A stretch of 64,000 nucleotides of DNA. It comes from Lophium mytilinum. Lineage: Eukaryota. Positions 26,439 through 58,308 of the stretch are shown one piece after another (within the stretch, counting starts at the first letter, position 1; the number at the start of each line of letters is the position of its first letter). The notes beneath the pieces are model-generated. The model ran no database searches. It was not told where the DNA came from and saw nothing but the letters and a program-made list of their open reading frames with translations. The stretch is taken from NCBI GenBank assembly GCA_010093605.1, contig MU004193.1, positions 1,123,520 through 1,187,519 of the forward strand. The letters are read 5' to 3'. Both the position numbers and the translations under genes were made by a program.

Positions 26439-26564
26439 AGCGGTCGCCCAGTCGTAAATCAAGAGCAAGTGGAGCGGCCATATGAAGCGAAAAGAATCAT
26501 CCCAAGATCTGATGGAAAGGTCTAATGTAGCGTTTGAAATATTTCACATACTACGATGATAGTC

Positions 26565-26741
26565 AGCGTGGTTAGTAAATCGTCCAATCCTCCATCTGAT
26601 TGATGACCAGTGTGTTAAAACTCCCCTTTGCAGTCNNNNNNNNNNNNNNNNNNNNNNNNNNNNNNNNNNNAGCGTGGTTAGTAAATCGTCCAATCCTCCA
26701 TCTGATTGATGACCAGTGTGTTAAAACTCCCCTTTGCAGTC
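26565..26741. other. 35-N assembly gap flanked by an exact 71-bp direct duplication
   Basis: 26565-26635 is identical to 26671-26741 on either side of the N run at 26636-26670. Confidence 0.95.
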
Positions 26742-27276
26742 AAATCAATCAATCCAAACCGTTGTCAATCCTCGATCCGCCTCTTTCACTCTTGTTTTAC
26801 CTAAATCGGAATACTTCATACTTTTTATGATCTTAGCTAGCAATCTTTCAATCTGTCTAACCAATCCGCACTATTATCCTGCCAATCCCATCTAATCTCT
26901 ATCTTGGTCCGGTCAGTCAAATCCAATTTGATGGCTAGCAATCAATCGGACGGTTTATCAACCACGCTGACGTTGAGAGTAGACTTAAGATTTTCTTAAT
27001 GGCATTGCCATATTCACATTGTGCATTCATATGCCATTGCAACATTCACTTTCGTACCCAATGCACTCCCTATAACACTGTAAATGATGGATTGAGCATT
27101 GTGTTCTTACGGTGGTTCACTCCCAGGCTTATATATTTCCATCTTCACGTCGCTCATTTCCTTTCTTCACCACTTTCAACCCAAACCGGCTTCCACCCAA
27201 CCTAGTATCAGTCAATCATAACATCCTCCAAAACACCATTGACCACACCAACACTAGCTCAACTCGACAAGCCGGC

Positions 27277-32730: not shown

Positions 32731-34354
32731 ATGTCTTCGAGCGTCTACTCGGCGTGGGTTTGGTCTCCAGAGCACCAGCGCCACTACTGTTACCGCTATG
32801 TGAACGGCCAAATCGAGTACCAGTGGTCAGGCCTCGCAACTGCCCAAGCGCAAGCAGCCGCGACAACATCGATACCGCAGACACCCCAGGGGACGAGGTG
32901 AGTGATAGTTTATATTATAGCCCTCGAATCTTTGATTGAAACCTTGTTACGGGCTGGAGCACTAGCTCTGCTAGTTGAATGGTTTTTGGAAGTTGTCGGG
33001 GGAGTTCGTTGCCTTGATCTCTTTGGTAGCCTCGTCCTCTCAGCAATGAAACTCCATACCCTTCAAGTCTAGCCCCAAGCACTCCCAACTTCCTCTGCTG
33101 ATCTCCACTATGCAGTGCTGTACCTCGCACAGTACCGACAATACCCTCGGCAGCCGCATCCTCGCCGGGAGCCACATCCTCAAGGACAAATACTTCCTCG
33201 GGAAAAAGGCCACAACCCAAGAAAGAGACTCCTATAGTGCAGGAAGAGAAAGATGACGACGAAGAAGATGAAAATGAGAGCGACGAAGAGGACGACGACG
33301 ATGATGATGACGAGGGTAGTGGAGCGAGGGAGGGAAGGCCGGCGCTTCAAGTATCATCTCAGGCGTACAGGCCAGTCGCAACCACAACGACCCAGCCCGG
33401 CCGGTCTCATAGTTACCAGTATGGAGCGCCCCAGCCTAACAGCTATCAATACGGAGGTGCCCAGTCTACCGCTGCTACATATGCGTCATCTGCAAACACC
33501 CCCTACGTCGCCCCCGCTTCGGCTCCCACGTCACCTCAGTACACCTTCCAACGTCCTCACACGGGTGCTTCTCAGACGGCTGTGCCACAAAAGCGGCAAA
33601 ACTCTTCCAATGGGGGAGGTCCAAACCATCGGCACATTAAAAGTACCGCGGAGGGTACCGAGTCAAAGGAAGAGTCGCTTGATCCTCGTACGTGGTTCCT
33701 GCACTCAACAGGTACCCTGACTGACCGTGTTAGGCTACAAAAGAGTATCCCTTCGGCACACATCGCAGTTTTTTTGTAGAGGAAGAGTCTTCAAGATGCT
33801 TTGGACCGAACCCGCTGGTGTCACTCCGGGGAAAACCCGCGGTTCTACCCATTTTAGTCTAATTAGGTTCAATGAGACGGCCTACTCTGAGATTCGTCGA
33901 TTTATTGTAATAAGTAACAAGGGAAAATACAGTCAGTGCATGTAAGTTTGAATGTGGTTTCTCACCCATCGTCAATCCCTTGTCAGAAACTATCTCACTT
34001 CCTCTCATTCGACCCAGTACGTATGAGACTAAGGCTAACAGTCATAGACCTATCCAAACATACCGTGGCCAGGGCGCTCGTAAGCAGGGGATTATAGTCA
34101 ATGATCACGCCTTGATCTATACTGGCGCCGAGAACGACGAACAACCGCAACTTCTTCCCGGCGAACGGATCACAAAACAACCTCTGCGCGTAGAGCCAAC
34201 GGGCCAGGAAACTCTCGAACCTGCCTCTCGGGTAAATTTTGGGAAGGTATACACCGTGGAACACAACGTCAAAGTGTTAGACGTTGGCGTTGTTGCTCCA
34301 CAGCACATATACCTCTTGATAAATTACTTCACCGACGCTGTGACTTCGGTGTAG
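32731..34354 (+). CDS. DUF6590-type protein copy 1 (N-terminal W/Y motif, acidic linker, MazF/PemK-like C-terminal domain)
   Basis: MSSSVYSAWVWSPEHQRHYCYRYVNGQIEYQW...LDP/YKRV...FFCRGRVFKMLWTEPAG...SEIRRFIVISNKGKYSQC/IPIQTYRGQG...HALIY...SRVNFGKVYTVEHNVKVLDVGVVAP. The structure of the middle exons is approximate. Confidence 0.85.
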
Positions 34355-36097: not shown

Positions 36098-38490
36098 TCA
36101 GCCTAGCCATCTTTGCGAACCGTATTCCGAATTCCTTCTCTTCCCTCCTTCATTTCGTCTTGCGTGCTCTCTCTCTCCTCCTATCACTCTCGTGTCTTGT
36201 TTTTGTCTCCTGTGCGGTCGCTCTGGTTCCTTGCCGGAGTGCTGTTCATCTTTCACATTGTTTCCAAGTGCCAAAGTCGAGGAGGCTTCGCTTGCTTCCG
36301 GGTCATTGCCATCATCCATCGGAGTATCTTCGGGTTCTATCGATCCTCCGGACTGTGCCGGGTAGTTCAATTGCCATTGCTCCGCGGGGCGTGTATTTCC
36401 TCTAGGCCGTGGTTGCTGATTGCTCTGTGAACTTGTCCCCATCGCCGCCTCGAATTCAGATCCTCTCCTTTTAGTTTGGTGAGTCTGAAACGCTTGCTCT
36501 TGTGCACCAGATGATGCCAGAGACTGAGGATACACCGGACGGGATGGATAAGCGGACGATGATGCCGGTGTCGATCCCCCAAGGGCATACGGTGGTTTTA
36601 TGGTGGACCCCAACACTGAGGGTTGCTGATACGGTGAAAGCTGGCCTTCAGCAGGTTGATATGCTCTCTCTGTGGATGATCCAGCATTGAGCTCTTTTGG
36701 AGCGCTACTTATGTTCGACCCAAAAGTGCCGCGCGAGGCTCCTACCACAGATCCCCAGTTCAAGGCTGGTTGGTGTGGCGAAGGCTGACTCTCCGTAGCC
36801 TGATGGTCTGCGAATATTGATGAACGAGTGTTGACATCGTTATCGGTAGCAATCTTTGTGTTACTTTTCTGATTCGTACTGTAATCAGACGAAGTCCTTG
36901 CTGGCCTATCCCGCCGCGGGGCGGTAGAGTCGGATTTACAGGCGTTCATGAACTGGTAAACGAGGGCTCGCTCCGAGTTTTTATGCACCTTCCCAAAATG
37001 CCGTACCTTCACATTGTGCTGGACGGTGTACACTTGGTCAAAGTTTATTCGAGACATCGGATCGAGTTTTTCCCAATGAGGGTCCGGCACAACACGAATA
37101 GCATCACCTAGTGGCAGTCGGTTTCTCTGGGTCATCTCTTCAGGCCTTAGTGGCGGGACAGTATCACCAGTATAGATGATGGCATGTCGACTTCTTTGCT
37201 TATCACCAGTGACACCCCGGCCTTCATATGTCTGGATGGGGAGGCACCAGCAGCAGTTACTGCGCATCTTGACGACGACAAACCAGCGGATTTTGACGAA
37301 GAATTTCTCCCCAAATCTCTTCGACTCAGCAAGGTTTTGTGCCGAGACTTCGTGGGCGGAGATCGTCATAGAAGCGGCTCGCTCTGCTACCGGCTCAGGC
37401 CAAAGAACTCGGAATACTTGGCCTACGAGGAAGTAATGATCCCCCTTTGGCTGGACACAGAAACCTAATTGTGTTAGAAAGTTGACTGAAACAGAATGGC
37501 TTAGTCCGACAATATCTTACGAGGATCTAATCGCTCGACTCGCCCAACGGTACCGGCAATCACCTCCGTGTCTACGTCGTCCACGTCTGGTCCCTCTTCT
37601 CTTTGACTAGGCATGGGTGGCGCATTCTGGATTTCTGTGGTACGGGAAGAAGTATCTATTGTCCTTCCCAAGGTCGACGGAGCTTGGCTCGAGCTCTGCA
37701 TTGGAGGTGCGTGGTACGCATTTTGGGCCGGAGAGGCGTCGTGCGAAATGTGGTTCGCGTTTGCGTAGTATGAAATCTGACTTGGATTCGAGCTCTGGAC
37801 TCGCATAGTTTGCGGTTGGCCATTCGTCAAGGGTGGGCTCATGGCCCCGGTGTTGCTAGAAAGATAAGGGGCATGCTGGGCCCAAGGAGAGTACTGAACA
37901 GAGTTCTGACCCATCTGGTACGGGTTCCAGTGGTTGGCCGCAACTGGACGATATGGCTGACCACCAGAGGCTGCATGGTATTCCGGCCCAATTCGTAAGA
38001 GAGAGTGTTGAGCTATGGTTGAGTTTAACGTGTGTGTTTGGCCAAACCCTCTCTCATTCGGTTGTGGTTGAACAGCATATATGCCACCGCTTGTGGTCCC
38101 ATTATCGATTGGAGCTTGTTCGAGGGTCGGAGTCAGCTGCGAAGTAGTCTGTGAGTTGCTTGACTCCACAACTGAAGGGGATGAATGCAGCTGATTGGCA
38201 GACGAGTTTTCTGCACTGTCTTCAAAATGTCTTTGGGGGTTACTGATACTCTATAGATTAGCCTCCAGTGCTGATTCCGCATCGAAGCATCGTCTTGGCG
38301 GGGCATATTGAACTCACTGATTGTTTGGACCGGTAGTGGCACCTGTTGCAGAAATTTGAGTGGTATTGAGTTCTGTACTCGCTCTAAAAATCCAGCTACT
38401 GCTTCCCGTATCGTAGTACCGATAATCATGGTATCTCTCGTCCCATATCCATTCCGGCGGCGGTGGTGGTTCTCCCTGAGGCGGTGCCAT
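36098..38490 (-). CDS. DUF6590-type protein copy 2 (with a long disordered C-terminal extension)
   Basis: MAPPQGEPPPPPEWIWDERYHDYRYYD...ERLDP/RFCVQPKGDHYFLVGQVFRVLWPEP...KIRWFVVVKMRSNCCWCLPIQTYEGRG...HAIIY...SRINFDQVYTVQHNVKVRHFGKV. Introns at about 38317-38243 and 37520-37465. Confidence 0.85.
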
Positions 38491-39210
38491 AATGGCGCAT
38501 TGGCCGGCCCTGGTCACTTTTGTACGTATGCAGTCGCCATCAGTTTTATGTAAGTTCCTCTGTCAAGGATGGTAATGATGGGGACGGGTCGATGAGGGGA
38601 TTGGTCCAGCAAACAGAGCCTCATGATGTCGACTTGTACGTATGATTCGTCCGTTCCTTTGGCCAGCGAAGTCGACAGCCCCGGCAAACCCTGGTAAAGA
38701 CTGGTTTCCAAGTCTAGCCTGCCTCGCTTACTGATAATGCAAGCAGCGGAGGACGCGGGCGAGAACCACATTGATTGCCCTGTGATCCCGGTGGTACGTT
38801 TGTGGCGCCTCCTTTGCAGAAACAGGGCGGGCAACCCTTCTTTTAAGCATGCAGTGTCCTTCACACCAAAACTCGACTTGGTGTGCCTTCGACTGTTAGC
38901 CGTCGCCTACTTATGGACCTGGTAAAGCAGGAGCCGGTCGGTACTGAAGTCGTCTCGGCCAGCGGATATGACATTTTTACTGAACTTTCGTAAGTTTTCT
39001 TCGGCTCAGTAATTTTTGCTCCAAGTTCTAACTATATGAAGACTGCAATCATCAGTTCACCACTCCCCTTTACTACTCTCATCCGAGACACTCGATGCAA
39101 GAGGTCAGCTGGACCTCGGCTCTAGACCCTCGTTCCAAAATAGAAGGCTTGAGCTATGCGAAGGATCGCCGAACAATGCCTCTGCCGCATTTGACCAAGC
39201 CTCCTCAGCC

Positions 39211-40551
39211 TTGCTGCAAACGCAAGCGCCGTCCCCTCAAGAACATTATCAACAACACTCAAATGGGAATACATTGTACCAGATTTCCACTGGATCGCCG
39301 GAAACATCATCACAACTGCCAAAGAGGAGCACCTCTAGGCAAACCATGCCAAACAGCCTTCCACCGAGCAAAAGGTGGATCAGAGCACAACCACGCGTGG
39401 CTCGTTGGAGGGACAAAGTCTTGACTGCACGTGTTCGGAATAAAGAGCAAAGGAGGATATGTTCGCAGCAAAGGCAGCACTGCCATGGTCTCCAATGGCG
39501 GCTCACGAATAATCTCCAGACAGCACTGGAAGCCCTTGTACAAACGAAGGACCCGGAAAGCCTCAAAAAAGGTTTCCAAGGTCTTCAGCGATTGTGCGCA
39601 GAAGTGGGCGTGTTAATGAATGGATTGGAGGCTGAAAACGTGCAAGTAGATGCACAGGAAGACCATCTTTCTGATCTGGAATACCGTTTCGGAAAAAAAG
39701 AAGATGACCTCTTCCGCCACTTGGACATTGCATTACTCGGCGGCGACACGCAATATGAGAGCACAGATTCATTCTCCGACAGTAGCTCTAGTATATCGAG
39801 CTACGATTCCCCTGAAACCGAGATCCACCCTCTTCTCAAAGAACTTTATTCAAGGATGGGAGACCGAAACATCTATAAGGACCGCCGGATCGATTTCGAG
39901 ATGCGGCTTCAGCACGACGTCGAAGATCGCGAGACCCTTCGTGGAGAAGGGAAAGAAGTCAGCACCGATGAGGAGTTCTACCGCACGCGACTACCGGAGC
40001 AGTTACGAATACAATATGATCTGTCCCAAGCACGCGAAGATGTTCGACGGCTTAGGCAGTTATGCTTCAATGAGGGTATCGAGGTTGAGCACATCGTTGA
40101 GGACGACGACGATGGATCAGCTTTTGATGCTCATTCTGAAGTGTTCTCAGCGCCCGTGGATCTGGAACATTCTACAAAACCCTCGACTACGGACTGGTGC
40201 CCTCCGCAAGCATCTCGATCTTTTAGCAGTATATCACCCGGGGTAATCAATAGCTTCGTAAATACCCGCGAGCGTGTCAGGAAGTGGTTAGCCGATGCCC
40301 CTATGGTAGAACCAGCGCTCGAAGCACCCGCAATTCAAGCAATATCCAAGGACCAGAGTTGGGTCAAGCTAGTGCGAGCACCATGGCCATCAAAGGAGGC
40401 TCTACAAGGCGGGATCTCTGGCTACGATGCACCTGACTGGATCCAGCCCGCGCAAGCCCAGCTCTCCAAATCGGCACCTTACATTCGAACCCCGTCGACT
40501 GAAGCCTACGACAACCCTCCACGAGGAGGACGCACATGCAGTTCCTCGTGA
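39211..40551 (+). CDS. Coiled-coil partner protein CC2, divergent from DUF6590 copy 2
   Basis: 446-aa ORF with LSDLEYRFGKKEDDLF (compare EWRFIEAEDDFY in CC4) and NTRERVRKWL (compare STRERINMWI in CC1). The true start is uncertain: first in-frame ATG at 39346, possible upstream exon near 39095. Confidence 0.75.
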   Translation: MLQTQAPSPQEHYQQHSNGNTLYQISTGSPETSSQLPKRSTSRQTMPNSLPPSKRWIRAQPRVARWRDKVLTARVRNKEQRRICSQQRQHCHGLQWRLTNNLQTALEALVQTKDPESLKKGFQGLQRLCAEVGVLMNGLEAENVQVDAQEDHLSDLEYRFGKKEDDLFRHLDIALLGGDTQYESTDSFSDSSSSISSYDSPETEIHPLLKELYSRMGDRNIYKDRRIDFEMRLQHDVEDRETLRGEGKEVSTDEEFYRTRLPEQLRIQYDLSQAREDVRRLRQLCFNEGIEVEHIVEDDDDGSAFDAHSEVFSAPVDLEHSTKPSTTDWCPPQASRSFSSISPGVINSFVNTRERVRKWLADAPMVEPALEAPAIQAISKDQSWVKLVRAPWPSKEALQGGISGYDAPDWIQPAQAQLSKSAPYIRTPSTEAYDNPPRGGRTCSSS

Positions 40552-42999: not shown

Positions 43000-45066
43000 T
43001 CACCGAGAGGGCCGATCCGGCTTCCTGGCGTGTGGAGCGAGGTTTCCGATGCCAATTTCACTGTGTGCCCGTCGGCGATGCGGGTTCAGAGGCACCAATC
43101 TATATGGTTGCAGCACCTCTTCAAGTGGTATAAACTCAAGAGGTGACGGTGATCGAGACAGACGGTAGTCAACTGTTTCAGGTGGACTAGGTACATCGTG
43201 GCTTGGCTCATTGACTGTGGGTATGCCTGCTACTGTATTCTCAGGATCCAGCGGAGGAGTTCGAGGCTGTCTATCCCGGTGCCAAGAGCCATCGTACGTC
43301 GCAAGATACTCTGCCACCGCGCGTTCTTGTTTCGGACCTCCTGGCTCAGACTGTGGCCTGGTTCTGCCTGGCCGTTCATTGGGGAATAGGGTTCGGTGAC
43401 TCTGAATTGCTTCTTCGATCTCAGCAAGAGCCGTTTCGTGGCTTCGAACTACGACATCTGGGTAAGTTTCTTGCGTGGGTGTGATTCCTGGAGATGATGC
43501 CGGGGATTCTTGGTCTACTTCGTCGGATATTACTTTTGTTTTACAATGTGGCCAGTGAAGACAAGATGCTTCCATTACTGGAGATGGTTGGCAAGAATCT
43601 TTCAGCGGAAGGGGTGGTGGTAGACTGATCGCTGAATCTGCAAGCATCTGTGGGTCGTTGATGACAGGATGTTCCACAGCGTGGCCTCCTGACTGATCTT
43701 GCGGCTCTGTCAGGGAGATAGCAGGTTCATTCAGGGGAAGTACCGCCGTCAAATCTTCCGAAACTTCATCATATAAATCCGCGGTGCTGGCTAGAAAGGC
43801 AACATCGGGTCTTCCCTCGGTTACAGTTTTCCTAGTAACAGATCCCACGGCGTGCGCAGTTTGATGAGATGCCGACGGACTTTCTAAATGTTCATGAAGC
43901 AGGGGACTGCTTGTTATGTCATCATTCCAGTGTTTGACGATCTGCAGCCATGAATCTTCATCGAGATTTTCAGTCCTGAGACTCTTGAGGAGGGTCTTGA
44001 ACCGCGTCCATTCGAGAGGGGATTCATGGAGGCTCTCCAGCATCCAAATGCCAATACGCTGTTTGACGCTTGAAAAGTCACTGACTAGATTCGATACCGC
44101 ACTGTCGGTCCACGCTCGACTGGAACTTGGCCTGGTCGGCAATGCTCTCTGACTGAAGATGTACAAAGGGTCCGACGCTCGTCGTTCGACATTTGGATTA
44201 TGTCCCTCGGTGTACATTTGCTGCTTCCAGCGCTGCAGTTCATTTTCTGCCGCTATCAACCGATCAAGGATTATGCTAGCTCGCTCATAGAACTCTCTCA
44301 AATATCGCTCGGTCTCTGGTGGCGTTGAGAATTCGGCCAACATTCGCAATCGGCGCTCTTCCATGTGTCCAACCTCTTCTTCCCGAAATTTGTTGAATTG
44401 AGCTGTGAGCTTTCCAACTTCTGCAAGAGCAGACAAAAATCCTTGGTTGATTATATCGTTGTTGGTCTCCGGCATCACCACCTCGGTAGTCGGCGGTTGT
44501 GGTGGTGAAGATGATGCGGACGGAGGTTGGGCTGGTCGATCGTCATTCGGAGCAAGTCGTTCACGTAAGGGCTTGAGAACCTGTTCCTCAAATAAATCCA
44601 GAGCGTCCATATCATAGAACTCATTTTCCTTTTCGAGCATTTCCCATTCAGAGATATTGAAGATCCTATCATCTTGCATACTGTCATCCTCGGTTTTGCC
44701 TATGTCATCCCGTAACTCTTGGACAAGCTGGTATTGCTCCTGAAGTTCAGGAGGAAATATCTCATTCCTCGTTATGTAAAGGCGTCGAAGGCTTTTCATG
44801 AACTCCGCTTCAGCATCTCCAGCCTTGAGCCGCTTTTTCCGGATAGCACCATCGGTTAAGCGAAGATTGACCCGTCCTTGGACTACCCCTTCTCTCATTT
44901 GTAGCAGAATCCTTTGTTGGTCTTGGAAAAGGCGTAAGAATTTACGGACCAGTTCGAGCAAATACTCCTCTTCGTTTGGTAGAGGCTTTGGACTCGCTTC
45001 TAGCCTTGTGTCTTGCTGAGAAGAACGCTGAGGAGGACGCAAGTCCGGATTCGGGTCTCTCGACAT
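43000..45066 (-). CDS. Coiled-coil partner protein CC3, divergent from DUF6590 copy 3
   Basis: AEAEFMKSLR...VQELRDDIGKTEDD...SEWEMLEKENEFY...FNKFREEEV...RRASDP...KQRIGIWMLESLHESPLEWTRFK. First ATG at 45066. Confidence 0.85.
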   Translation of the reverse strand: MSRDPNPDLRPPQRSSQQDTRLEASPKPLPNEEEYLLELVRKFLRLFQDQQRILLQMREGVVQGRVNLRLTDGAIRKKRLKAGDAEAEFMKSLRRLYITRNEIFPPELQEQYQLVQELRDDIGKTEDDSMQDDRIFNISEWEMLEKENEFYDMDALDLFEEQVLKPLRERLAPNDDRPAQPPSASSSPPQPPTTEVVMPETNNDIINQGFLSALAEVGKLTAQFNKFREEEVGHMEERRLRMLAEFSTPPETERYLREFYERASIILDRLIAAENELQRWKQQMYTEGHNPNVERRASDPLYIFSQRALPTRPSSSRAWTDSAVSNLVSDFSSVKQRIGIWMLESLHESPLEWTRFKTLLKSLRTENLDEDSWLQIVKHWNDDITSSPLLHEHLESPSASHQTAHAVGSVTRKTVTEGRPDVAFLASTADLYDEVSEDLTAVLPLNEPAISLTEPQDQSGGHAVEHPVINDPQMLADSAISLPPPLPLKDSCQPSPVMEASCLHWPHCKTKVISDEVDQESPASSPGITPTQETYPDVVVRSHETALAEIEEAIQSHRTLFPNERPGRTRPQSEPGGPKQERAVAEYLATYDGSWHRDRQPRTPPLDPENTVAGIPTVNEPSHDVPSPPETVDYRLSRSPSPLEFIPLEEVLQPYRLVPLNPHRRRAHSEIGIGNLAPHARKPDRPSR

Positions 45067-45900
45067 AGTAGGCTTTGTTGTGGCGTGAGGAGTAGTGGGC
45101 ACTTCGCTCTCCTGTGGACATTTCCGGATAATATACGGCGGCCGAAAGCGCGGTCCGACCGGTGTCACTTGAAAGTTTCAGTGCTGAGACAGGAGACGGA
45201 GAAGAACAGGCAGGTTAAAACGAACGTTGATATGGTCCACGGTTATGCTATGTCCCGAGCTCTGCAATGTGTAAGACTGAAGATCGATGTGTTGAGTTTA
45301 GCGGAGGGTGTTGCAATGGACAGCCCTTACATGGTCGCAATTTTGACGCGCCTGAGCTTGGCACGCGCAAGGTGATAACCGCGCTATTTATTACCTTGCA
45401 AAATGAAACAAATGAAAGCATTCCACTTGGTAGCGGCGGAGGGATTAAGGCAACCGTGCGTAAAGGGCTCGACCAAGCTAATTGCGGTGCACGAGCATGC
45501 ACCCAGCCGGGCGAGCAACGGGGGGCCCTCAATCGGTGAAGGCGATCGAACGAGGCGCTGGTGCGTCCCCCATAATCCGAAGGGTGGCACGCCTAAGTGT
45601 GAATCCCTGCGCCATACTAAAGCGGCGTTCGACCCGTGCGGTACGCACCAACCGCCTGGGATTGGGCCTGGGGCATTATGCATGGCGCATAACTCATAAC
45701 CCCTCCTTGTTACTTGCATGCAGCATTCAGACAGGGTGAAAGTGGGGAAGATGGACAATCGCTGCAGCGTAGAATAGCTCGTGATAGAAATGCGGCTCTG
45801 CGAGCGCTACGCTGGCAGCCACCGAGGTGTGGACAGGAACGTGGCCCGTATAAGAATGCCTCCCCCAACCGTGTGAAACCTGTCTAGATAGCAATCAAGC

Positions 45901-47159
45901 ATGGCTTCCAATAGCAACCCATGGGTCTGGAGCGAGGAATATAGGCGATACTACTGTATCTCTTATGATGAAGAGTGTAATTGTACCGACCTGAAGCAAC
46001 GTGTGGGCTCACTGACAGTCCAAGCAAACCCCGTGTACATTTGGCAAGATGTCACACCTAGTGTAGCACCCACCCCTACCTCACTCGGTATAGCAAGCAA
46101 TACTGCAACCGCTACGCAGCGTGCGTTTTCTGACATGTAGCGACAATTTGAATGTACTAATCAGCTCAGGCCCCCCTCCGCAGACTTGGGCCTATGGAAG
46201 CCATCCTACAAGCCACGCCGCAGTCAACACAACGACAAATGCTGTATACAGCACACCCACGGAGGGTGCAAATGATCCACGGCGACGCGATTCAGTGATG
46301 ACTAGTAAGCTACTCACTTGTAATGATGTTATAATTGAACCGTCTACGTTTAGATCATTGAAGTGAACTGACATGGATCACTCAGAAAAAGCACCGGACT
46401 TGGGCAACCATATCAAGGGGACGAATGGAGACTTCGAGGAGCTAGATTCAAGTATGACCCTGGATGACTGAATATCGCATAGCACTAACAACTGCAGGCT
46501 ATTCTGTAAGGAAGGATGGCAAGAGATTTTTCAAAAGAGGAACAGTAAGACCTTTCCCATAGTTGATTGGACCTCGGCTTATTAGTTTTTACAGCTCTTC
46601 TCGGTCCTGTTTAGTGAAGGCATGGGAGAAACGCAAAAAATGCAGGACAACGAGAATGTCACTACGGTCAAATACGGTGGGAAGGTGTTTACACAGATAC
46701 GCCGATTTGGTAAGGCGTGTTCCTGGACAGAGCTCCCCGTATAAATTTAACAGTTCACCAGTTGTCGTGGCAGAACGTGAGGGGTTCTGCTATGCGTGGT
46801 ACGTTTAGAGATTCTCATGTACCCATTCAACCGTTTTTTAACAAATCGAATACAGTCCAGTCTTCACGTACACCGGTCGTGGGACCCTGAAACCGGGCTG
46901 TCGGCCGTGGGAGCATGCCGTCATATACTACAGCACGTTGCAATCTCCCATAACTCTCGATGGCGAGAACCAGATGAAGAATTCTCCCATCGGGGTGAAA
47001 CCAGAGCCTACCGAAACGAGGCCATTGAGTACCGCCTCCCGTGTACAATTCGGGAAAGTGTACCCCATTGATCACAATGTCAAGGTGAAACTTCTCGGGA
47101 AAGTCATAACTGAGCACATGGGAAGGTTGATCGCCTACTATAAAAATGAGCTCGATTGA
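45901..47159 (+). CDS. DUF6590-type protein copy 3 (compact, many introns)
   Basis: MASNSNPWVWSEEYRRYYCISYD...ELDS/YSVRKDGKRFFKRGT/LFSVLFSEG...TQIRRF/VVVAEREGFCYAC/PVFTYTGRGTLKPGCRPWEHAVIYY...SRVQFGKVYPIDHNVKVKLLGKV...LIAYYKNELD*. Confidence 0.85.
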
Positions 47160-47924
47160 TTCGTCGTCGACGCGCGCATCCTGGACAACCGATCATACGT
47201 GGGACGCCAGCTCAACACTGGAGAGATTAGCTTCAACACCTCTCCCTATTCCTTTTGTTTACAATTACGTGAGCTTCATACCTTGAAGCTCGGTGGCACC
47301 ACCAAGAAGGACCTCTATTTCTCGTTCGATAAGAAGCGCACTTGATATTCAACCCAAATTGTCGATGATGATACTAGACAAGACCCCCATTTCGTTCTTT
47401 GAAGTTATATGATGTAGTTTTCCCTTGTTTATGACAGACTGGAACCTCTCGTAGTCTACTTCACTCTGAGTAAGCGTGTTCGGACTTGTATGCTGTGCGT
47501 TTTATTTCGACATCCACTGTCTTTACTCGTGTGAACATCGTAAAGAGATAATGAAGACATCTGACTTCTTCGAACTATGGTCGTCTAACATCATCTAGAT
47601 AGAGACGAGCGTCACAGGTACTCTACTAGATAGACGTAAGATACGAGTCAGAGCGAAGGACCGGCTGAGTAATCTGATGTAAGGAGCCTTCGTGGCAGAG
47701 ACTTATAGACTAGCAGAATATATTCAAAGGAGTCGTGGGCTCCGCAAATGATGATGAGCTGCTGGCATACTGGTGCAAAACTTTTCAGATTTTCTTTCAG
47801 TGTTTAGTACTACTACCAAAATAGAATAGCGTCTTGGCAGACCGAAATAATACCGAAAATATAGGAGAAATGACCGTATCCCGACTAGCATGCTCCCTCC
47901 GAGGCCTTCTTCTGGCGCCATTTT

Positions 47925-49679
47925 CTACGTCAGCCACTCTACCTCCCTTTCTAATGGCTCGATGACGTTGGCGTAGATTCCATTTCGTGTCTCAGCATCG
48001 TCCAGCCTCACACTCTGACCCCCCTGCACCCAAGTTAGGTCCAAACAAGCTTCAACTGAGGAACGGTATGGCGACGCATCCATTTTCTTGACAATACGAT
48101 CCGCGACTATCAAATTAAGGTTGTCCTCGGTAGCGGCCGTCAGATTCGAGCGCTCCTGCGTGCTCCGCCAACACTCGATTGGCTTTTCGTTATGTATCTC
48201 GATAAGAAGAATGCCCAGAGTGAGAATATTGGAGTTCGGATGGAACACTCCGGAATTTGGTTGTCCGACTTGCCTTGCGGGGCTCTCAAATCTAGTCGAA
48301 AGGTATGGTCTCGTATAATCTGGCTCGTTTTGGAGGTTGACGAAAAACGAGAGATTGCTCTTGTTCCATCCGCGGCTAAGCCATGGACTATCATGAAAAA
48401 GAAGAAGCGAGTAGGAACATATCAACGCAAGTCTGCGCTTTTCTAATGGTCCCATCTTTGCATTTTCAACCAGTAGTTCCCCTAGGGATATTGGTTTTTG
48501 TGGCTCGAGTAAGTTGTGGATCCGTCGAGGTTTAGGGGCCAATCTCCAAAGAGACTGCTGTCCGTTGATGTCTTCCATGAGAATGCGGAGCCTGAAGTCT
48601 CTCAAGCCCATTTTCAATGCGTCACAAACTCTTTGGAGCCTAGTTTCGTCGTCGGCTCGCGGTATACTGTTCCCAAATTAGTCAGGTTAGAACTCCATCA
48701 GCCTCAAAATGTACGCTTACCTGGCCGAGCAGACTGACACAGTCCCTTCTTGCCAACAGTGCGCGCTGTTCTGTGAAGAAGTTGTGGTGATGAAGAAGTC
48801 AAGGTCTACGACGTCGGCGTTCAAGTTTGCCGAAGCTTCCTGGACGTAAATGCAGAATCTGGCTTCATGTCCTCCGTTGCAGGTACACTTCCACGAGCGA
48901 GCAAACGCATCATACAACTTTCTTGTTAGTAGCCGGGCTGGCGCAGAAGGGCTTGTGAGTGCGAGGAAAAACCCGCTTTTTCCCTGAGTGTGTTCACTAT
49001 GTCGGCGCCCCATAAGAGGCAGAACATGTGTCTGAGATCCTACTTTCTCAATGAGATCTCTCAATCTCTGATTCCTGAGTTTCAATCTCTGCAAGCAATC
49101 ATTGCGATGATTCTTTTTTCTGAAAAAGTGGAATCTTTCCATGAAATTGCTTTTCGTTCTCTTTGTTTCTCTTTCCAAGGCGAAGCCTTTCAACTTTTCA
49201 TACATTTCGGATTCTTCCTACAGCCACTTAGTACGTAAGACTCAGAAGAGTTGTTCCTGACTAACCAAGTCTTTGTTGGCAACGTATGTCATTTGGTTCT
49301 TGAGGAGCTGAGCCAGGAGTTGCACGATTCTTTTTGACGTTGTGCTAAATTTGTTGAACGCAGCCTCCGAACCAAAGTAACGGCGAAGACGCTTCTCCAC
49401 TTCTGAGTTTTGAATCCAGTCATCCAGCTTCAACGCAGAGGCAGGACGATATTGTCCCGGGGAATCCGAAATAGCTCTAGATATCTCTGCAACGTGCTCT
49501 CCTAGCTCACTTATTTCCCAGTAAAATTCGTCGTAGAAGTCGCTAAGGCTCGCATTACGGCGAGATTTTAAAGAAACATTAAGAACTGTGTCCACTCCAT
49601 CCGAGTACGCTTTCCCAGCCTCGATAAAAAGTGGCAGCAGCGCAAGGACAAGACCGGCACACTCGACTCCCGTAACCAT
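47925..49679 (-). CDS. HeLo-like N-terminal domain plus C-terminal pseudokinase-like (DUF7580-type) protein, 3 exons
   Basis: MVTGVECAGLVLALLPLFIEA is a HeLo-like hydrophobic N-terminal helix. The C-terminus reads RRLALICSYSLLLFHDSPWLSRGWNKSNLSFF...PYLS...NILTLGILLIEI...YRSSVEACL. It joins ORFs 49242-49679, 48717-49205 and 47925-48617. Confidence 0.75.
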
Positions 49680-50280
49680 GGCGATATCTCAGAGGTAGCA
49701 ATTGGAGTGCAATGATTCGAAAGGCTTGTCGAACTTGATTTTGTGTCTCACTAAAGATTCAGCTGCTTGTGTCTTGGGTCGTTGAAATAAAAAAGCTCGC
49801 GGTTCTTGAGGGGTCAAGAGTTCTAGTGGGGTCACCGCCAATCATCAAGACCTTCCGGTGAAGGATGTTCCGGTGAGTGCTGCGACTGACCGAGGATAGG
49901 AATCTCTAAGAGCGTCCGGTGAAAAGCAATAAGCTTGACGATTCCAGAGAGCGCCCTGGGAAAAATCCATCATTACTAGATCTATATCGAAACATAAATA
50001 GTACGTCACCCGCTGCTCTGCTGTACCCCATCACCTTGCTATAAGTCGCAAGATTGAGTGCAGTTTACCCCGCACTAGAAAAAGCAAATGAGTGCACGTC
50101 TCAGCATTTTCTATCACCGACCCAGCATTGCAGATTCTAATGCTTGTCGAGGCTTAGTTTACATTTCTTGCAACGCTTTGGTAAGATCTTTTCAATTTAG
50201 CCTCTAAGTACTACTATCGAACTTTTAGAGAGACATTCCATGCCCTGTTGAGGTTCAAGCTCCAAGAATCTCTTCTCAGC

Positions 50281-53204
50281 ATGGACACAGTAAAGTTCGA
50301 AAACGATGCAAGAATCAGCACTTCTACGGAGCAACTACACTACGACAATTTCATATCTATACAAACTGCTGCGAATCATTGCGCTAGTATCTTCACTAGC
50401 TCAAGAGCAATATCTATTCGACAGGAGTGCCCAAAAGGGATACTAGTCGACTTCGAAACCCAATGCAGTCGATTCAAGATTTGGGCATGCGGTCTCGATA
50501 TCTCTTTCAGTCAAGTTAAGGCGGAGCAGCTGAGTGAAGAGCGGCTTAAGACTGAGAGTAAGTGCGAAACCGATGAAGTCGTTGCCCATCTGCTTCGAAG
50601 GCTCGCCGGAAAGCTCCTTGCATTTTTGGCATCACCTTTGGATACTCAAGCCCGACCTGAAGAGCAGTCAAGCCAGGCCGGAAATAACGCAGAATCAACG
50701 AGTCCATGTTCTTCGGTGTCCTCTCTGGTGCTTGAATCGGATGCAGAATCTTCCGACTCAGATGATTCACCCCCAGACTCCGCAACACTCCGGACAAACC
50801 TTGCTCGCCGGCATCCTCTACTGGTAGATGCTGATAATATCATCACGCGTCTCTATCGCTTCAATGCTATTACCAGGATATACACAGCACACGGTGAGCA
50901 CCAAAGGTCTCCTCAGCATGTTGGGGCTGATCAACAGTACCCTGACCCACCGGGTTTCCAGTTGCTTGTCGAAAACGACGTTCTGAGGAGTAGTCCCCGC
51001 CTGCAACATTTGCCAGCTTTGCAGGAGCGTATTGTTCGCGCAGCTCTTCACCGGGACAGAAGAATTCGTGGTTGGAAACCCCATGAACAGGAGCCTCTTG
51101 AAGCTGATGCCTCGGAAACTGAGATACCTCCAGCAGGACCAGAAGATTGTCTTGGGATTCCACATATGCCGCAACCTATCAGGCCAAGTTCATCGGAAGC
51201 TCAATGTCCTATTTGCTCCAAAACCTTTAATCACGGGCTTGAAGAAAATCGGAATACGGGAAAATGGTGGAGGTAATGTGTTAATCGCCGCTTGAGTTTC
51301 AGTCCTTCTACTAATCTAACTGGGTAATTATAGGTCCCATGTTATGGAAGATCTAGAACCATACGTCTGCCTATTTGAGGAGTGCCCTATGGAGTATCAA
51401 GCTTTTCGGACTATCGCTGATTGGATAAATCACATGGCGTGGCAGCATACCACGTTCTACTCCTGCCAGTTTGGCGGCCACGAGAATGTATTCTTCCTCA
51501 GCCGGAAAGCATTCGAGTGTCATCTAACGCAAGATCATCTTGATAACATCCCTAAAGGAAAAATTGACCATATCATCTCAAAAGGCCTCCGGCCGGCCCC
51601 GGATCTGATAACAGTGCTCGTGGCCAAAGCAGATCTGACGACACATGCCCTTCTCGATCACGTGTCCTTGTGTCCCTTTTGCTATATCGGATTGAGTATA
51701 TTCGGCTTTCCCTTGAATGTAGAAGCAAATGGTACTGCAATCTCACTAATTCCATCTGCGCTACATTTGAAAGTACAAGACCACGTTGCTGCTCACCTAG
51801 AATCCATTGCGCTGCTTTCGTTAAAAAAAACGAGGACCGTACCCTCCTACCCTTGATCATTCGGTGTCTAAAGCAGCCAATTCGCGAACTCTGGAAGATT
51901 CATGGCCCGCCGCATCAAATGCGCCCATGAATGCATCCACAGATGCGCAGGCCACATCCCAGCCAACAACGCTCTTCCGTCAAAGATCCGCTGAACCTGC
52001 GCATCCACCGAATGCTAGTCATTTGGAATCTGGTGTCATTACATCATCAGATGTAGAACCCGCTGCACATGCACAAAGGCAAATGGCTTCGCAGCCAGCG
52101 TCATCCTCTTATCATCCGGCCTCGAACTCTTCTGCACAAAATACCGGCCTGTCCATGTCGCTCACCAATGCTTGGACATCCGAGACTTCTAACGCGAATG
52201 TGTGGACTTGGAGCGAGCCTTACCAGAACTATTACCGCGTCTCTTGGGACTCGAAAGGTAGTATCACTATGTGAAGTTAAGGATGCGTTGTTCACTAATT
52301 ACGATGCAGGCGCTCCAATATACCACTGGGCCGAAATAAAACCTACCATTTCAAGTCCGGTGAACCCAGCGAGTTTGGTATCTTTGCCTGCAAAGGGTAG
52401 GTCGACTTCCCTTTATGTTGAGTACTCGTTCTTTCAGATATTCTATCAATGCCGTTACGTTTCCAGAAACTGACAAGCCATAGATGAAAGCAAGGCTGCA
52501 AATGTTAGCAGTGGAACGCTCAGTAACGCAGAATTACTTGACTCGAGTGGGTTTATTACCGTAGACTCAAACATGTTGTTGCTAATTGCTACAAGGCTAC
52601 AGACTCCAAGCTTCTAGGTTCTTTAGGAAAGGAAGGGTAATTTACCCTGTAAGCAGCCTTAGTTTGGTAATACTATTGACGCAACTCTGTAGATGTTCTC
52701 AGTTCTTTCCACTGTCGGTGATACCGCACCTAAAACAGACAAGGAGAGCGGGTATGGTAGTGTAGTTCGGCACCAAACGACTACGGCGGCGCAAATTCTC
52801 CGATTAGTCTCCGTCGATAACAAAAACGAGGTGTGTTATGCCTGGTAAGTTTCACACGATACTCATCACGGTGAGACGCTGATAATGATAGTCGTATCTC
52901 TACATACGGAAAACGAGGTACCCTCGGAGAAGGGTGCCAACCTAGCCAGCATGCCATTATCTACTACGTTGGGCGTCAGGATCCTATCCTTCTGGAAGGA
53001 GAAATGGGAATAAAGAAAAACCCAATTGGAGTCACACCTATGGAAGGCGACTCCTCGCTATCAAAGATGCACGTTGCTTCGCGCCTTAACTTCGGAGATG
53101 TGTATCAGATAGAGCACAACGTGAAAGTAAAAGATCTCGGGAAGGTCATCGACGAAGACATGTCGTACCTGATTGCCTACTACGAGCAGGGAAGAAAGGG
53201 ATAA
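50281..53204 (+). CDS. C2H2 zinc-finger protein fused to W/Y motif and DUF6590 copy 4; frame broken at an A8 run (51823-51830)
   Basis: RFKIWACGL...IITRLYRF...CPICSKTF...WR/SHVMEDLEPYVCLFEEC...WINHM...CPFC...HVAAHLESIALLSL. Removing one A continues the frame to WTWSEPYQNYYRVSWD...LLDS/YRLQASRFFRKGR/MFSVL...CYAC/RISTYGKRGT...HAIIYY...SRLNFGDVYQIEHNVKVKDLGKV. Could instead be a pseudogene or two genes. Confidence 0.7.
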
Positions 53205-53987
53205 TGTGACTCATGCTCTACACGGTCATGGAAATTGAGGATTAAACACTAAGCGCAGTTCAATGTTGACCTAAATGTCTTGATTTAAAGTGATGGTGAG
53301 TTATTGAAAGCTTCCGGCTGTATCGATTTGAAACTCGAGGCTGCTAAATAGTTCATATACCGATTTCGTTATTTAATTGCGTCACTGAGACAATAGTCCT
53401 CTTGTCACAAGCGGATTCAAACGGCAGAACTTTATACCATGACTCTAGCAAGACACTGCGTGGCCTGATTAACGACCGGAGGGAGTGAAGTGCCCGGGAA
53501 CGCAGCACGCTACAAGCTATAACGTAACGATAGTATGCTTCCAAAATATGGTTAAACAATTGATTGGAATCCACTCAATCCCCTTTAATAGAAGTCCTGT
53601 AACTTGAAGGATCCCTATGCGATGTTCCTATGCTTGCATTGCGATCAGACAACAGCAGGAATGGCTTCACACGGGCCGGGCGCTTCGCTGGCGAATAGGG
53701 CTATGGCTTAGAACTAGTATTTTCACCAGCCGCGACTTCATTGGTGTGCACGCGCGAGTGGCACAAGCCACATGCAATGCTGGGCAGATTTACGTTCTAG
53801 CCTGCAACGAAACCCACGTAGACGTCTGCGTCCAGAGTGCCCACTGTGCACACACTCTGCTCTGGTGATGTCAAGTCCGAGACCTATTGGCTTTTGATGC
53901 ATACGGCGTTTTTCGAAGAACCCTGTTTTCTGCTGTCCATGCCGGCGTCCCCGAGCTGCTCTCACTCATTCAAAGCCTGGGGCAGTC

Positions 53988-55904
53988 ATGTCGACAGATC
54001 GAGGTCCAATTGCAGACCTACCAGAGGAACTTTGCGGCGATACTTCTGATGTCCGTCCAAACCGGCCTTACCTTCCAAACTTCTCTAGCGTGTGTCGTCA
54101 TAAGGACTGTCATCTTTCTCAACACAAGGACCGTCATTTCCATCGCAAGTACCGTCAACATCTAGAGAACGTGCAGAGGAGGCATGAACAGCTCGCGCAG
54201 TCAAGAGAACGAATAGTCATCGAGCGAGTGGAAACCCGATCTATATTGCAATCGATTCGTCCGCACCGAGAGAGAGCTGGAAACCTCGAGGCTTCATTTG
54301 TGACGAGGCTGAGACAATTCTGTGCGCGGCAAGCCAGTGTTCTTCCTCCGGATATTGACGCACTGTACCAAGAGGTTCAAGAAGCACGAGACACGATTGG
54401 TAAACTCGAAGATGACTTTATCGAAGCCCAGAAGTCGTATAATGCCTCTGAATGGCGGTTCATCGAAGCAGAGGATGATTTCTATCAGTATGATATTCTA
54501 GAAGATCTCCCAGAGACTAGCGACGAGGGCAGTATTAGCGACAGCGCACGTGGAGAGCCTACAACTTCACTCGTCATAACCCAACCAGTCGCTAAAGCTA
54601 TGATGGAAAGACTTTCCCGCGATCTCGTAAGCAATACGATAGAAAAGCGCCAGCTCAACGATCAGTTCAATGACTTCCGGGAGGAAGAAGTTGTACCAAT
54701 GGATGAACAAGAACTACGGTTACTTGCCGACTTTTCAACTCCGCGGAGGATAGAGGAGGAAAAGGACTTATTTCAACAAGCAGCAAACGTGGTTATCGAG
54801 AAACTCGTTGCTGTCGATGTCAGAGAAAGAAATCTAAGGCAAGAAATGCTCAGTATCGCCCACTCCTCCATGGCCCTTAGTCGCCGAGCTTCGGATCCTC
54901 CGAGATCGACTATGATGCCTTCACCAACTTCAAACATCGAGGCAATCTCACGCGAGATGAATGAAAGCAACTTGGCTGTGTATGGCCACGACCGCATAAG
55001 TAATAGAAAGAGAGTGGGCCAATGGATACTTGATACTATGGAGACGTCATCTCTTGAGAAAGCTCGATTCAAGCACTTTCTCCGCAGTGCAAACAATGAG
55101 GAGTTTGATGAGTCCATCTTTGAGCAGATCTTGATTCAGCGTTGGATGGATGGGAGCTCTAGTAGTTCAGCAAGTCGCACTGGCCAAGACGGCCCGATGT
55201 GGCACAGAAGCGTTGCGAGAAGTGAGTCTATGGAGGCAAAGAGAGAAGAATATGAGCCTTCGGAGACTCTGATGTCCAGACATGCAAAGAGCACATGGAC
55301 ACCGCCCATCTCCGTCAAATTTGCCTCACCACCCCATCACCAACTAGAGCTCAGAAACACAACACCGGAAAATATGGAAAGCTCTGATCATACGAGCAAT
55401 CTCTCTACAAATGACCGACACATAAGTCAAGACAAGACTACCATCGATCGCCCTAACCCCACGCTAGACTTTCATCAACATGCCTACGAATTACGTATCC
55501 AGCCTGAGAGATCTAGTGATCGGCCTCGATCAGATCTAGGGGATATCGGTGACGCTGGGAACGTCACTTTCGATCTGATTCTACCCAACTCATCCGCGAA
55601 CGTTGAGACCTCGTCTACCACCCAATACCGGTACAATGAGCCTTTGCGAGCTCCTCCGCCAATGATCACCGAGAACATCAGAGGCGCCCACCAGCTATTC
55701 ACATATACCATCAACAGACCATCTCCAAGTCCACCGCTTACAATGGCGTCTAGCGCTTCAGTCGTAGTTAATATCTCACGATCTGCTTCACCAATGAGCG
55801 ATGGTATTGAGCCACATGAATTACGGCGATGCCCCAGAGGAGATCTACCGCTTGCAAGGTCTGCATCCCACCGAAGATCTCGGAGTGAAAGCAACGCTTG
55901 CTAG
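53988..55904 (+). CDS. Coiled-coil partner protein CC4, in tandem downstream of DUF6590 copy 4
   Basis: LEASFVTRLR...VQEARDTIGKLEDD...SEWRFIEAEDDFY...FNDFREEEV...RRASDP...RKRVGQWILDTMETSSLEKARFK. Clearly paralogous to CC3. Confidence 0.85.
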   Translation: MSTDRGPIADLPEELCGDTSDVRPNRPYLPNFSSVCRHKDCHLSQHKDRHFHRKYRQHLENVQRRHEQLAQSRERIVIERVETRSILQSIRPHRERAGNLEASFVTRLRQFCARQASVLPPDIDALYQEVQEARDTIGKLEDDFIEAQKSYNASEWRFIEAEDDFYQYDILEDLPETSDEGSISDSARGEPTTSLVITQPVAKAMMERLSRDLVSNTIEKRQLNDQFNDFREEEVVPMDEQELRLLADFSTPRRIEEEKDLFQQAANVVIEKLVAVDVRERNLRQEMLSIAHSSMALSRRASDPPRSTMMPSPTSNIEAISREMNESNLAVYGHDRISNRKRVGQWILDTMETSSLEKARFKHFLRSANNEEFDESIFEQILIQRWMDGSSSSSASRTGQDGPMWHRSVARSESMEAKREEYEPSETLMSRHAKSTWTPPISVKFASPPHHQLELRNTTPENMESSDHTSNLSTNDRHISQDKTTIDRPNPTLDFHQHAYELRIQPERSSDRPRSDLGDIGDAGNVTFDLILPNSSANVETSSTTQYRYNEPLRAPPPMITENIRGAHQLFTYTINRPSPSPPLTMASSASVVVNISRSASPMSDGIEPHELRRCPRGDLPLARSASHRRSRSESNAC

Positions 55905-56363: not shown

Positions 56364-58308
56364 ATGAAACGAAAACTCAACGAAGAAGACGTTCCGGAGG
56401 AGGTACGGTCTGCGCCAGCTATGAAATCAGGCTCGAAATTCGAAACGTTGCATCTTGATCCTCGTCTCATGCGCGGGATTCAAGCGCAATCATGGGCAGA
56501 GCCGACGAAAGTGCAATTGGAGGCTATTCCACTAGCTCTGTATGGCCTCTCATTTAAAATTGATCCTACTCAAGCTGACAGTATGTAGTGAAGGGAAAGA
56601 TATCCTCGCGCGATCCTCGACTGGCACTGGGAAAACCGCCGCCTACCTTCTACCCGTACTCGAGAAGATCCTCCGCAGCAAAACAACATCCACCCAGCGA
56701 CAGGTCACGGCACTCATACTTGTCCCGACTCGGGAGCTGGCTGGGCAGGTTGCAAAGGTCACGGAGTCGCTTGCGGCGTTCTGTGGACAAGACATACGCG
56801 TGGAGAATATCGCACGGAAAGAGGATGATAACGTACAACGTCAACGCTTGGCAAACTTCCCGGATATTGTTGTGTCTACTCCGGGTAGAGTGTCGGCCAA
56901 CTTGAACAATGGTGCGCTCTCTCTCGATCACCTGGCATACCTGGTTATCGATGAAGCGGACTTAGTTATGAGCTTTGGACACGAAAGCGATCTTGAAAAC
57001 ATCTCCAAGTCTTTTCCGAAGGGTGTCCAGTGCTTCCTCATGAGTGCTACTCTAGCTTCCGATCTGGACACACTGAAAGGCTTGTTCTGTCGGGATCCGG
57101 TCATTCTGGAGCTGGACGATGACGAGAAGGATGCTGCTGGTGTCACTCAATTCGTTGCGCGATGCAAAGAGGACGAAAAGTTTCTGCTGGTCTATGTTAT
57201 GTTCAAGCTGAACTTGATCAAGGGGAAGGTAATCATTTTCGTGGGGGACATCGATCGATCATACCGACTAAAGCTATTTCTGGAGCAGTTCGGCGTCAAG
57301 AGCGCGGTCCTGAATTCTGAACTACCAGTCGCCTCTCGCCTACATATCGTGGAACAGTTTAACAAGAGCTTGTATGAGATCCTCATTGCTAGCGATGAGA
57401 ACGAAGTTCTCGGGAACGAAGGACGAAAGAAGAAGAGTAACAAGGTGGATGAAGCGGAGGAAGAGGTGGACAAGGAGGGCGAACCAAGCAAGGCAGCCGA
57501 TCCCGTAGATGTTCCAGCAGATGACGATCATGACGCAGAAAAGGACACTACAAATGGCAACGCAACTGAAAAGTCTGGGCCGCCACAGAAGAAGAGGAAA
57601 GGACCAAAGCTCGACAAAGACGCCGGCGTGAGCAGAGGTCTCGACTTCCGTAACATCGCCTGTGTCCTCAACTTCGATCTTCCAACGAGCTCCAAATCAT
57701 ACACTCACCGAATCGGACGAACAGCACGCGCGGGACAGACCGGTATGGCGCTGTCATTTGTCGTTCCCAAAGAGCACTACCGAAAGCATCGCCCAACCAC
57801 TTTCCCGTCCACTGAGCACGATGAAGAGGTCATGGCGAAAATTGTCGCATCCCAGGAGAAAAAGGGGAAGTCTGTTTTGCCTTACAACTTCGACAACGAA
57901 CGTCTAGATTATTTCCGATACCGATTCGCGTCCGCCCTGAAAGCTGTGACTCGGATAGCCGTGAGAGAAGCTAGGGTGCGGGAGTTGAGGATCGAGCTCT
58001 TGACCAGCGACAAGCTCAAGAGGCATTTCGAAGAGAACCCTGAGCTGAAACAGCAACTGAGGCACGACGGCGAGCTCAGAGCTGTGAGGTTGCAACCACA
58101 CTTGAAGCACGTTCCCGATTACCTTCTACCCGGAGGCACGCAGGCTGCTCAAGATAACGTCGGGTTCATTGGGATGGGTAAAGCGAACGAGAATCGGATT
58201 CGAAAAGCAAGAATGCAAAACAAGGCTCGTGGTAAAGGGAGGAAGCCTGGAGGGAGGAACGCAGATCCACTGAAAACATTCAATGCGAAGGGGCGTGGGA
58301 AAAAATGA
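56364..58308 (+). CDS. DBP9: ATP-dependent DEAD-box RNA helicase Dbp9 (DDX56), 2 exons
   Basis: TGTGKT, PTRELA, DEAD, SAT, SRGLDF and [10 protein letters not shown] motifs, plus Dbp9-specific LKRHFEENP...LRHD...HLKHVPDYL...DPLKTF. Intron 56540-56588. Confidence 0.95.

Follow-up and report, generated by a model that had tools for sequence, protein, structure and literature searches.

Genes with a predicted MazF-type fold paired with helical partners in a Lophium mytilinum cluster: three old classes and a degenerate fourth copy

The DNA considered here, a window of 64,000 nucleotides from Lophium mytilinum (contig MU004193.1, positions 1,123,520 to 1,187,519), belongs to contig C13 of a 43 Mb genome in 49 contigs, whose nearest named relatives are Dothideomycetes (Mytilinidion, Lepidopterella). 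Between 30 and 56 kb it carries four genes of the DUF6590 family (PF20233), named D1 to D4, and four genes of a coiled-coil (CC) family, CC1 to CC4. The gene order is CC1(-), D1(+), D2(-), CC2(+), CC3(-), D3(+), DUF7580(-), zinc-finger(+), D4(+) and CC4(+), followed by a DEAD-box helicase gene that we take to be DBP9-like. All four D proteins score well above the Pfam cut-off (92-149 bits vs 27), while a Pfam scan of CC1-CC4 returns no family at cut-off. D1-CC1, D2-CC2 and D3-CC3 form head-to-head pairs with starts 605-856 bp apart. D4 and CC4 lie tail-to-head on the same strand, 784 bp separating the end of D4 from CC4.

The D2 domain was modelled alone with AlphaFold2 from 29 sequences (predicted local distance difference test, pLDDT, 86.7), and the model has the MazF/CcdB barrel: the best structural match reaches Z 10.4 (root-mean-square deviation 2.2, 95 aligned), and of 48,161 chains compared, 11 reach Z 8 or more, and each of them is a MazF, Kid or CcdB. 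Foldseek ranks MazF chains at the top, none at E 0.001 or better, and the best viral matches are PemK-like. There is also a weak Pfam PemK match (E 0.027) in one of 15 D homologues and, as a lead only, a match of a remote D copy to a PemK cluster at 0.89. A search of the genome with PF02452 gave no match; the D profile found 0 matches among solved structures, nothing relevant in NCBIfam, and no close prokaryotic source among prokaryote genomes, where 42 pattern matches left 0 confirmed. A conserved Arg in K/Q-I-R is present in 93 of 99 domains and a Thr in P-I-x-T in 94. According to passages of PMC10893535, MazF catalysis uses an Arg and a Thr. On the strength of the model, the D1-D4 family is predicted to carry the MazF/PemK fold. 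The fungal genes resemble MazEF, PemIK and Kis-Kid in this toxin fold and in the tightly linked second gene, and the conserved Arg and Thr, on corresponding strands, may be equivalent to the catalytic pair, but differ in being eukaryotic and intron-bearing, with a domain of ~150 residues that holds insertions and long disordered arms.

The CC proteins belong to an unnamed ascomycete coiled-coil family, and matches to it across the genome are restricted to the 30-56 kb cluster. They measure 450-700 amino acids, are all-helical and are divergently transcribed, unlike the small DNA-binding operon antitoxins of MazE type. The CC4 model (pLDDT 65) consists of two long helical hairpins and a small helical end with disordered arms, and fold searches with CC gave generic coiled-coil matches only. 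CC3 and CC4 are each other's closest paralogues, as the earlier note on this DNA had held: they are 33% identical over 353 amino acids (E 6e-48) and both contain RRASDP. The quoted CC motifs and RRASDP are found at 44320-44397 and 44167-44184 in CC3, and at 54666-54743 and 54882-54899 in CC4. BLAST matches of CC3 and CC4 to CC1 are far weaker (E 5e-10 and 2e-8), and BLAST gives no significant match for CC2-CC3 or CC2-CC1; the comparison of class-2 and class-3 profiles identifies CC2 as a remote but true member (Table 1). The CC trees place the CC3 lineage as sister to the CC4 lineage, and Lepidopterella branches outside the two (98/93; 95/94 in a second tree), and the Mytilinidion CC is of CC4 type (approximately unbiased, AU, test p 1.7e-7 against CC3).

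The same arrangement is encountered in other fungi. A metagenome scan yielded 28 loci, 12 of them informative (at least 1.4 kb upstream of D) and the other 16 too short. A CC gene stands head-to-head upstream of D in 11 of the 12, which becomes ~8 of 9 lineages after removal of near-duplicates. Eight of the 11 CCs were found through a profile built regardless of neighbours; L058, L068, L069 and the second pair in L081 were found through a class-2 profile trained on the others. The order CC1-D1-D2-CC2-CC3 is repeated in L055, L059 and L061, and the facing partners of the window (CC1 with D1, D2 with CC2, CC3 with D3) recur in other fungi. Record numbers tell a similar story for named genomes: in Lindgomyces a CC (304533) is beside a D (304534), Neocucurbitaria has a D2-type gene at 107400 and a CC1-type gene at 107420, and Lepidopterella has CC2-type OCK85581 and CC1-type OCK85584. 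In Lepidopterella and Byssothecium the class-3 D and CC are on contigs of equal size. These come from 30 CC representatives that were looked up, the remainder being unnamed or without a D match for comparison. By the measure of type II toxin-antitoxin systems, the partner is tightly linked in pairs 1-3 of the window and in the 11 metagenome loci, and not in D4-CC4.

A more remote DUF6590-like family, on contigs C10 and C16, faces a helical partner in six of seven cases; two of its eight members pass the Pfam cut-off, three match weakly and three have no match. Homology of these partners to CC was not demonstrated by profile comparison (probability 1.5% and 8.8%). Arrays of this family with its second helical partner are seen on C16 at ~1238000-1249500 and on C10 at ~262000-276500 and 650000-660000 (L023, L024, L050-L053, L085).

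The earlier note had proposed that matching relationships in the two families reflect duplication of the pairs as modules. The D tree comprises 99 domains, after 16 of 115 rows were dropped as two-domain or short, and a second, careful tree holds 36. Eighteen pairs were compared (four from the window, 11 from metagenomes and three inferred from record numbers), with L058, L061 and L069 excluded as near-duplicates. The D class equals the CC class in all 18 and the D and CC trees share three well-supported clades; the single strongly supported clash falls within class 3. The Mantel correlation is 0.64 (p 1e-4), which is no proof of co-evolution since kin share labels. This congruence shows that the partners have stayed linked since old duplications and is not evidence of molecular co-evolution. 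At the DNA level the pairs no longer resemble one another. An ancient module duplication into three classes is supported by the trees and the recurring order, and that much of the proposal may be retained; for D4/CC4 it was not demonstrated, although the trees are compatible with an old co-duplication of that pair.

D3 and D4 had likewise been described as closest to one another. This is true among the four D domains of the window, where they are 46% identical and the other compared pairs 32-45%, but not in the genome, which holds three further canonical D genes on contigs C2, C5 and C7 (seven in total). The closest paralogues of D3 are those of C7 (62%) and C2 (59%), both on other contigs and without a CC gene. 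In the D trees, D3 forms a group with C7 and Mytilinidion P0185 (99/89), which C2 joins next (94/85) and the Lepidopterella-type P0190 after it (87/88); D4 falls outside this group on a branch of length 0.77. AU tests fail to reject D3+D4 (p 0.14), D4+P0185 (p 0.11) and D3+D4+C2+C7+P0185 (p 0.39). The sequence features cited for the two genes are real, and several are more widely distributed. All four D genes do have the phase-1 intron after LD[P/S]. The 'CYAC' intron of D3 and D4 is present, but at the same aligned codon and phase in D1, C2, C5 and C7 too; their FFxxGx intron also occurs in three of three outside paralogues, including the D2-like C5. D2 is the only D gene without both. PIGV and CY[AT]C are shared with C2 and C7, and a narrow-range intron after RRF links D3 to C7, not D4. 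The introns cited for D3 and D4 are shared ancestral states and lend no support to their pairing. The listed introns of both genes are confirmed by spliced contigs of run X3, one of three runs used here (X1 and X2 are DNA, possibly the source DNA; X3 is RNA-like and from another study). CC3, D3, D4 and CC4 all lie under spliced or RNA-like contigs of X3, whose depths were not used for an expression ranking.

The context of D4 differs from that of D1-D3. Its frame starts at an A8 run directly after the closing motif of the upstream zinc-finger gene, and at C5 and C7 the same closing motif continues in frame into DUF6590. The sequence data do not support an assembly error in this A8 stretch: X1, X2 and X3 are all free of indels there, although X1 and X2 may themselves be the source of this DNA. 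One spliced X3 contig spans the zinc-finger intron and the first intron of D4, although a two-gene contig does not prove a single transcript. Of 21 conserved columns, D4 departs from four, among them those of the Glu and of the Arg, the latter being Leu in D4; D1 and D3 deviate at one of the 21 each, conservatively. The zinc-finger gene itself faces a DUF7580 gene, whose product would resemble a HeLo-like and kinase-like protein, its N-terminus being similar to HeLo-like domains, and such facing pairs were found at 12 of 15 loci examined (18 Pfam matches). The two genes would constitute a second head-to-head system, as yet undescribed. The C2 copy can be linked to DUF7580 only indirectly, because its DUF6590 gene is split by an AT-rich insertion of ~10-12 kb (GC 0.15-0.39; L014 5600-10000, L015, L025), probably a decayed repeat. 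D4 is the frameshifted, degenerate tail of a DUF7580-paired zinc-finger gene, and D4-CC4 can at most be what is left of a module that no longer works. Co-duplication of D4 and CC4 was not demonstrated, given the tail-to-head orientation, the position of D4 in the DUF7580/zinc-finger cassette and the separation of D3 from D4 in the best D trees, although the AU tests still allow it. To note, the zinc-finger partners of DUF7580 vary at their C-terminus, which may be ankyrin, kinase or DUF6590 (window 47925-51856; L016, L019, L027-L033, L035, L037).

Table 1. Positions of the D/CC cluster and adjoining features in the window (ORF, open reading frame)
Feature	Position	Strand	Evidence
CC1, class-1 coiled-coil partner gene, single ORF	30070..32082	-	ORF; family profile E 1e-83; tree
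D1, class-1 DUF6590 (MazF-fold, predicted) gene, head-to-head with CC1	32731..34354	+	Pfam; gene model
D1 domain-region introns	33688-33733, 33942-34047	+	Gene model
D2, class-2 DUF6590 gene, head-to-head with CC2	36098..38490	-	Pfam E 1.6e-43; model pLDDT 87 and MazF fold
D2 intron after LDP	37465-37520	-	
CC2, class-2 partner gene; candidate starts 39095 or 39346	39095..40551	+	Profile-profile match to class 3, probability 99%, E 1.5e-18
CC3, class-3 partner gene facing D3 head-to-head, 835 bp between the starts	43000..45066	-	BLAST, tree; one contig of RNA-like run X3 covers CC3
D3, class-3 DUF6590 gene with N-terminal Trp/Tyr-rich tag	45901..47159	+	Pfam; five D3 splice joints in run X3
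D3 domain introns	46452-46497, 46545-46594, 46710-46761, 46799-46855	+	
Spliced antisense transcript over D3 last exon, intron 47218-47281, longest ATG ORF 46 amino acids	46761..47631	-	CT..AC joint, one contig of run X3; ORF scan
DUF7580 gene, head-to-head with zinc-finger gene	47925..49679	-	Pfam E 1.4e-27; splice joint 48682-48757
Helical N-terminal and C2H2-type zinc-finger gene, DUF7580-partner family, start uncertain	50281..51856	+	Profile from other loci, E 1.5e-15; intron joint 51270-51332
A8 run from zinc-finger frame to D4 frame, directly after closing motif of zinc-finger family	51823..51830	+	Free of indels in DNA runs X1 and X2 and in run X3
D4, degenerate class-3 DUF6590, first ATG 51927; without conserved Glu and Arg	51825..53204	+	Pfam, alignment, run X3
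D4 introns	52547-52595, 52637-52692, 52845-52891	+	
CC4, class-3 partner gene without head-to-head D gene	53988..55904	+	BLAST, tree, structure model
DEAD-box helicase gene, main exon; cluster anchor in other fungi	56536..58308	+	Pfam; follows D in 5 of the 28 metagenome loci

These observations may be assembled into the following scheme. The D/CC pair is an old ascomycete two-gene module, in which a D of predicted MazF/PemK fold stands head-to-head with an all-helical CC. Early in the Dothideomycetes the whole module was duplicated, giving rise to three classes, and it has stayed beside the DEAD-box helicase gene. D would be a putative single-strand RNA endonuclease, harmful when free, and CC, expressed from the shared promoter region, would bind or guard it. 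Loss, mismatch or cleavage of CC might then free D and arrest growth, in the manner of a type II toxin-antitoxin system or a non-self or defence response; such a release could serve defence, non-self response or development. D domains are also reused without CC as C-terminal effectors of DUF7580-paired zinc-finger proteins, as seen at C5 and C7 and presumed for C2. D4 is such a copy, now frameshifted and degenerate, and CC4 has lost its head-to-head D. DUF6590 further occurs in fusions with kinase, TPR, ankyrin and caspase-like domains, a reuse that fits an effector role. By analogy with the bacterial systems, a MazF-like RNase held in check by its head-to-head CC is the best explanation of the whole, at what we would call an even chance. 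Several results weigh against it. Locus L071 has no CC upstream of D, and a head-to-head CC is absent for four of the seven canonical D copies of the genome. Searches of ~10 kb on each side of C2, C5 and C7 found no CC, and C2 and C5 are nonetheless intact at all 21 conserved positions; such copies must need no CC, use CC in trans or be held by their fusion. The hhalign comparison of D with E. coli MazF is non-significant (probability 0.6%), and in it the conserved Thr falls one position beyond E. coli Thr52. In size CC far exceeds MazE, and its matches are to generic coiled coils only. With its synteny maintained for so long and three classes retained, the system resembles a conserved cellular function more than a selfish element. 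A joint structure prediction for two D3 chains and residues 45-425 of CC3, run without alignments, scored 0.00 and counts neither way.

For the fourth pair, the opinion is evenly divided as to whether D4 and CC4 are an inverted copy of CC3 and D3, mirroring pairs 1 and 2, into which the DUF7580/zinc-finger cassette entered before the block inverted and D4 decayed. CC3 and CC4 separated after the divergence of Lepidopterella (95/94), and placing D4 in a D clade of equal age costs 2.1 log-likelihood units (the p 0.39 case above). D4 is of class 3, has a long branch and is close to CC4, and one inversion of ~47.9-53.2 kb would make it convergent with D3. Its position outside the D3/C2/C7/Mytilinidion group in the best trees argues the other way, as does the failure to find a D4 orthologue among 83 matches in a search that included the last exon of D4; the introns contribute nothing in favour. 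Mytilinidion can be read in both directions. Its CC4-type gene is numbered two genes from its D3-type gene, which is 67% like D3 and 46% like D4 and whose contig has an identical length. If these two are partners, they form a conflict, readable as a partner swap; if a D4 orthologue lies between them, for which the numbering leaves room, they fit co-duplication.

As to function, D and CC might instead form a conserved non-toxic complex for RNA binding or processing, developmental or meiotic, with CC as a scaffold and the linkage due to a shared promoter, which we regard as possible without leaning to it. The stable synteny with a housekeeping helicase, the 45-65% identity of orthologues, the X3 contigs over CC3, D3, D4 and CC4, the existence of non-RNase roles for the MazF fold (CcdB is among the matches) and the intact CC-free D copies would all agree with such a complex. 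It accounts less well for the repeated duplication, the spread onto zinc-finger, kinase, TPR and caspase-like proteins and the tandem arrays of the second family. Duplication, domain spread and tandem arrays are typical of conflict systems, as known from fungal immunity. The tight linkage of two-gene units, the fast-diverging partner and the DUF7580 cassette alongside are also what would be seen of a poison-antidote meiotic driver or a heterokaryon-incompatibility locus, where allele differences in D/CC kill spores or fused cells. This is unlikely: runs X1-X3 contain no second allele and the locus is anchored in position, whereas meiotic drivers are usually patchy in position. Shared descent alone gives matching trees and D copies without CC exist, so tandem and inverted duplications could merely have carried neighbours along, with no functional D-CC link at all. 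That is very improbable when the head-to-head layout is maintained in every class and in ~8 of the 9 distinct lineages sampled despite the loss of DNA similarity, and when a second family repeats it with a partner of undemonstrated CC homology. A wider form of the toxin-and-guard explanation is put forward tentatively and is more probably wrong than right: ascomycete chromosomal toxin-antidote modules derived from MazF, in which each CC class would neutralise an active mRNA interferase, antisense RNA would damp it, and the domain would be reused as the killing part of zinc-finger, kinase, TPR and caspase-like immune proteins, amounting to a eukaryotic type II toxin-antitoxin system that feeds fungal cell death.

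MazF/PemK toxins are treated as prokaryotic, and a conserved, expressed fungal family with a linked partner would represent either an RNase branch of fungal regulated cell death or a domesticated toxin. It would provide a first testable function for DUF6590 and for an unnamed family that counts at least 830 proteins when clustered at 50%, and the three partner classes, the partner-less copies and the degenerate D4 would offer a ready specificity matrix. Taken alone, the D4/CC4 claim raises the usual question of tandem duplication; it is the MazF-fold module that is of interest. Known fungal two-gene incompatibility loci include het-c/pin-c, vic6/pix6 and het-B. The loci of this kind and the HeLo-like/kinase proteins treated in passages of PMC12881547 resemble the cluster in their adjacent effector and partner genes, but D and CC have no HET, NLR or gasdermin domain. 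Pezizomycotina also possess toxin clusters derived from killer plasmids, which are described in PMC13556262 as old, intron-bearing, nuclear and secreted, with a ribonuclease, an immunity factor and a chitinase carrier. The D/CC cluster is comparable in age, introns, nuclear location and the association of a putative nuclease with a possible immunity-type partner, but has no chitinase, and its putative nuclease is MazF-fold. The literature search found no paper naming DUF6590 or DUF7580 and nothing on PemK with fungal genomes, gene transfer and endoribonuclease together. Among the titles and abstract openings listed for MazF or PemK and fungi, none mentions a fungal family; subscription papers and database clan notes lay outside this scope, and the fold link may be on record. 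The passages of PMC12258605 and PMC9815663, without supplements, mention neither MazF nor PemK, and those of PMC12881547 do not mention MazF. No prior paper was found for a fungal MazF-fold module with a dedicated partner.

A few features accompany these genes. Spliced minus-strand contigs are seen over the last exons of D3 (46761-47631) and D4 (53083-53169), in run X3 only, and suggest antisense RNAs over the MazF-fold exons of both. Immediately left of CC1, at 23875-28398 (+), are three tandem paralogous helical ORFs (27-32% identical), which have no Pfam match, no D partner and no demonstrated homology to the C10/C16 partners. Of 111 D proteins scanned, 34 have the Trp/Tyr-rich N-terminal tag of D3, the seeds making up 11 of these; we assume a resemblance to WW domains, and a comparison with Pfam WW gave no match. 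The second exon of D3 (46019-46059) agrees in 35 of 41 bases with L021 at ~600-700, on another contig, where the sequence seems to be the C-terminal tag of the D2-like C5 gene, a hint that the tag may move between genes. Five proteins (P0182, P0183, P0186, P0187, P0201) contain two tandem DUF6590 domains, like a single-chain MazF dimer. In L055, a protein-kinase gene lies just past CC1 (14556-16277), and kinase-DUF6590 fusions exist too (P0212, P0238).

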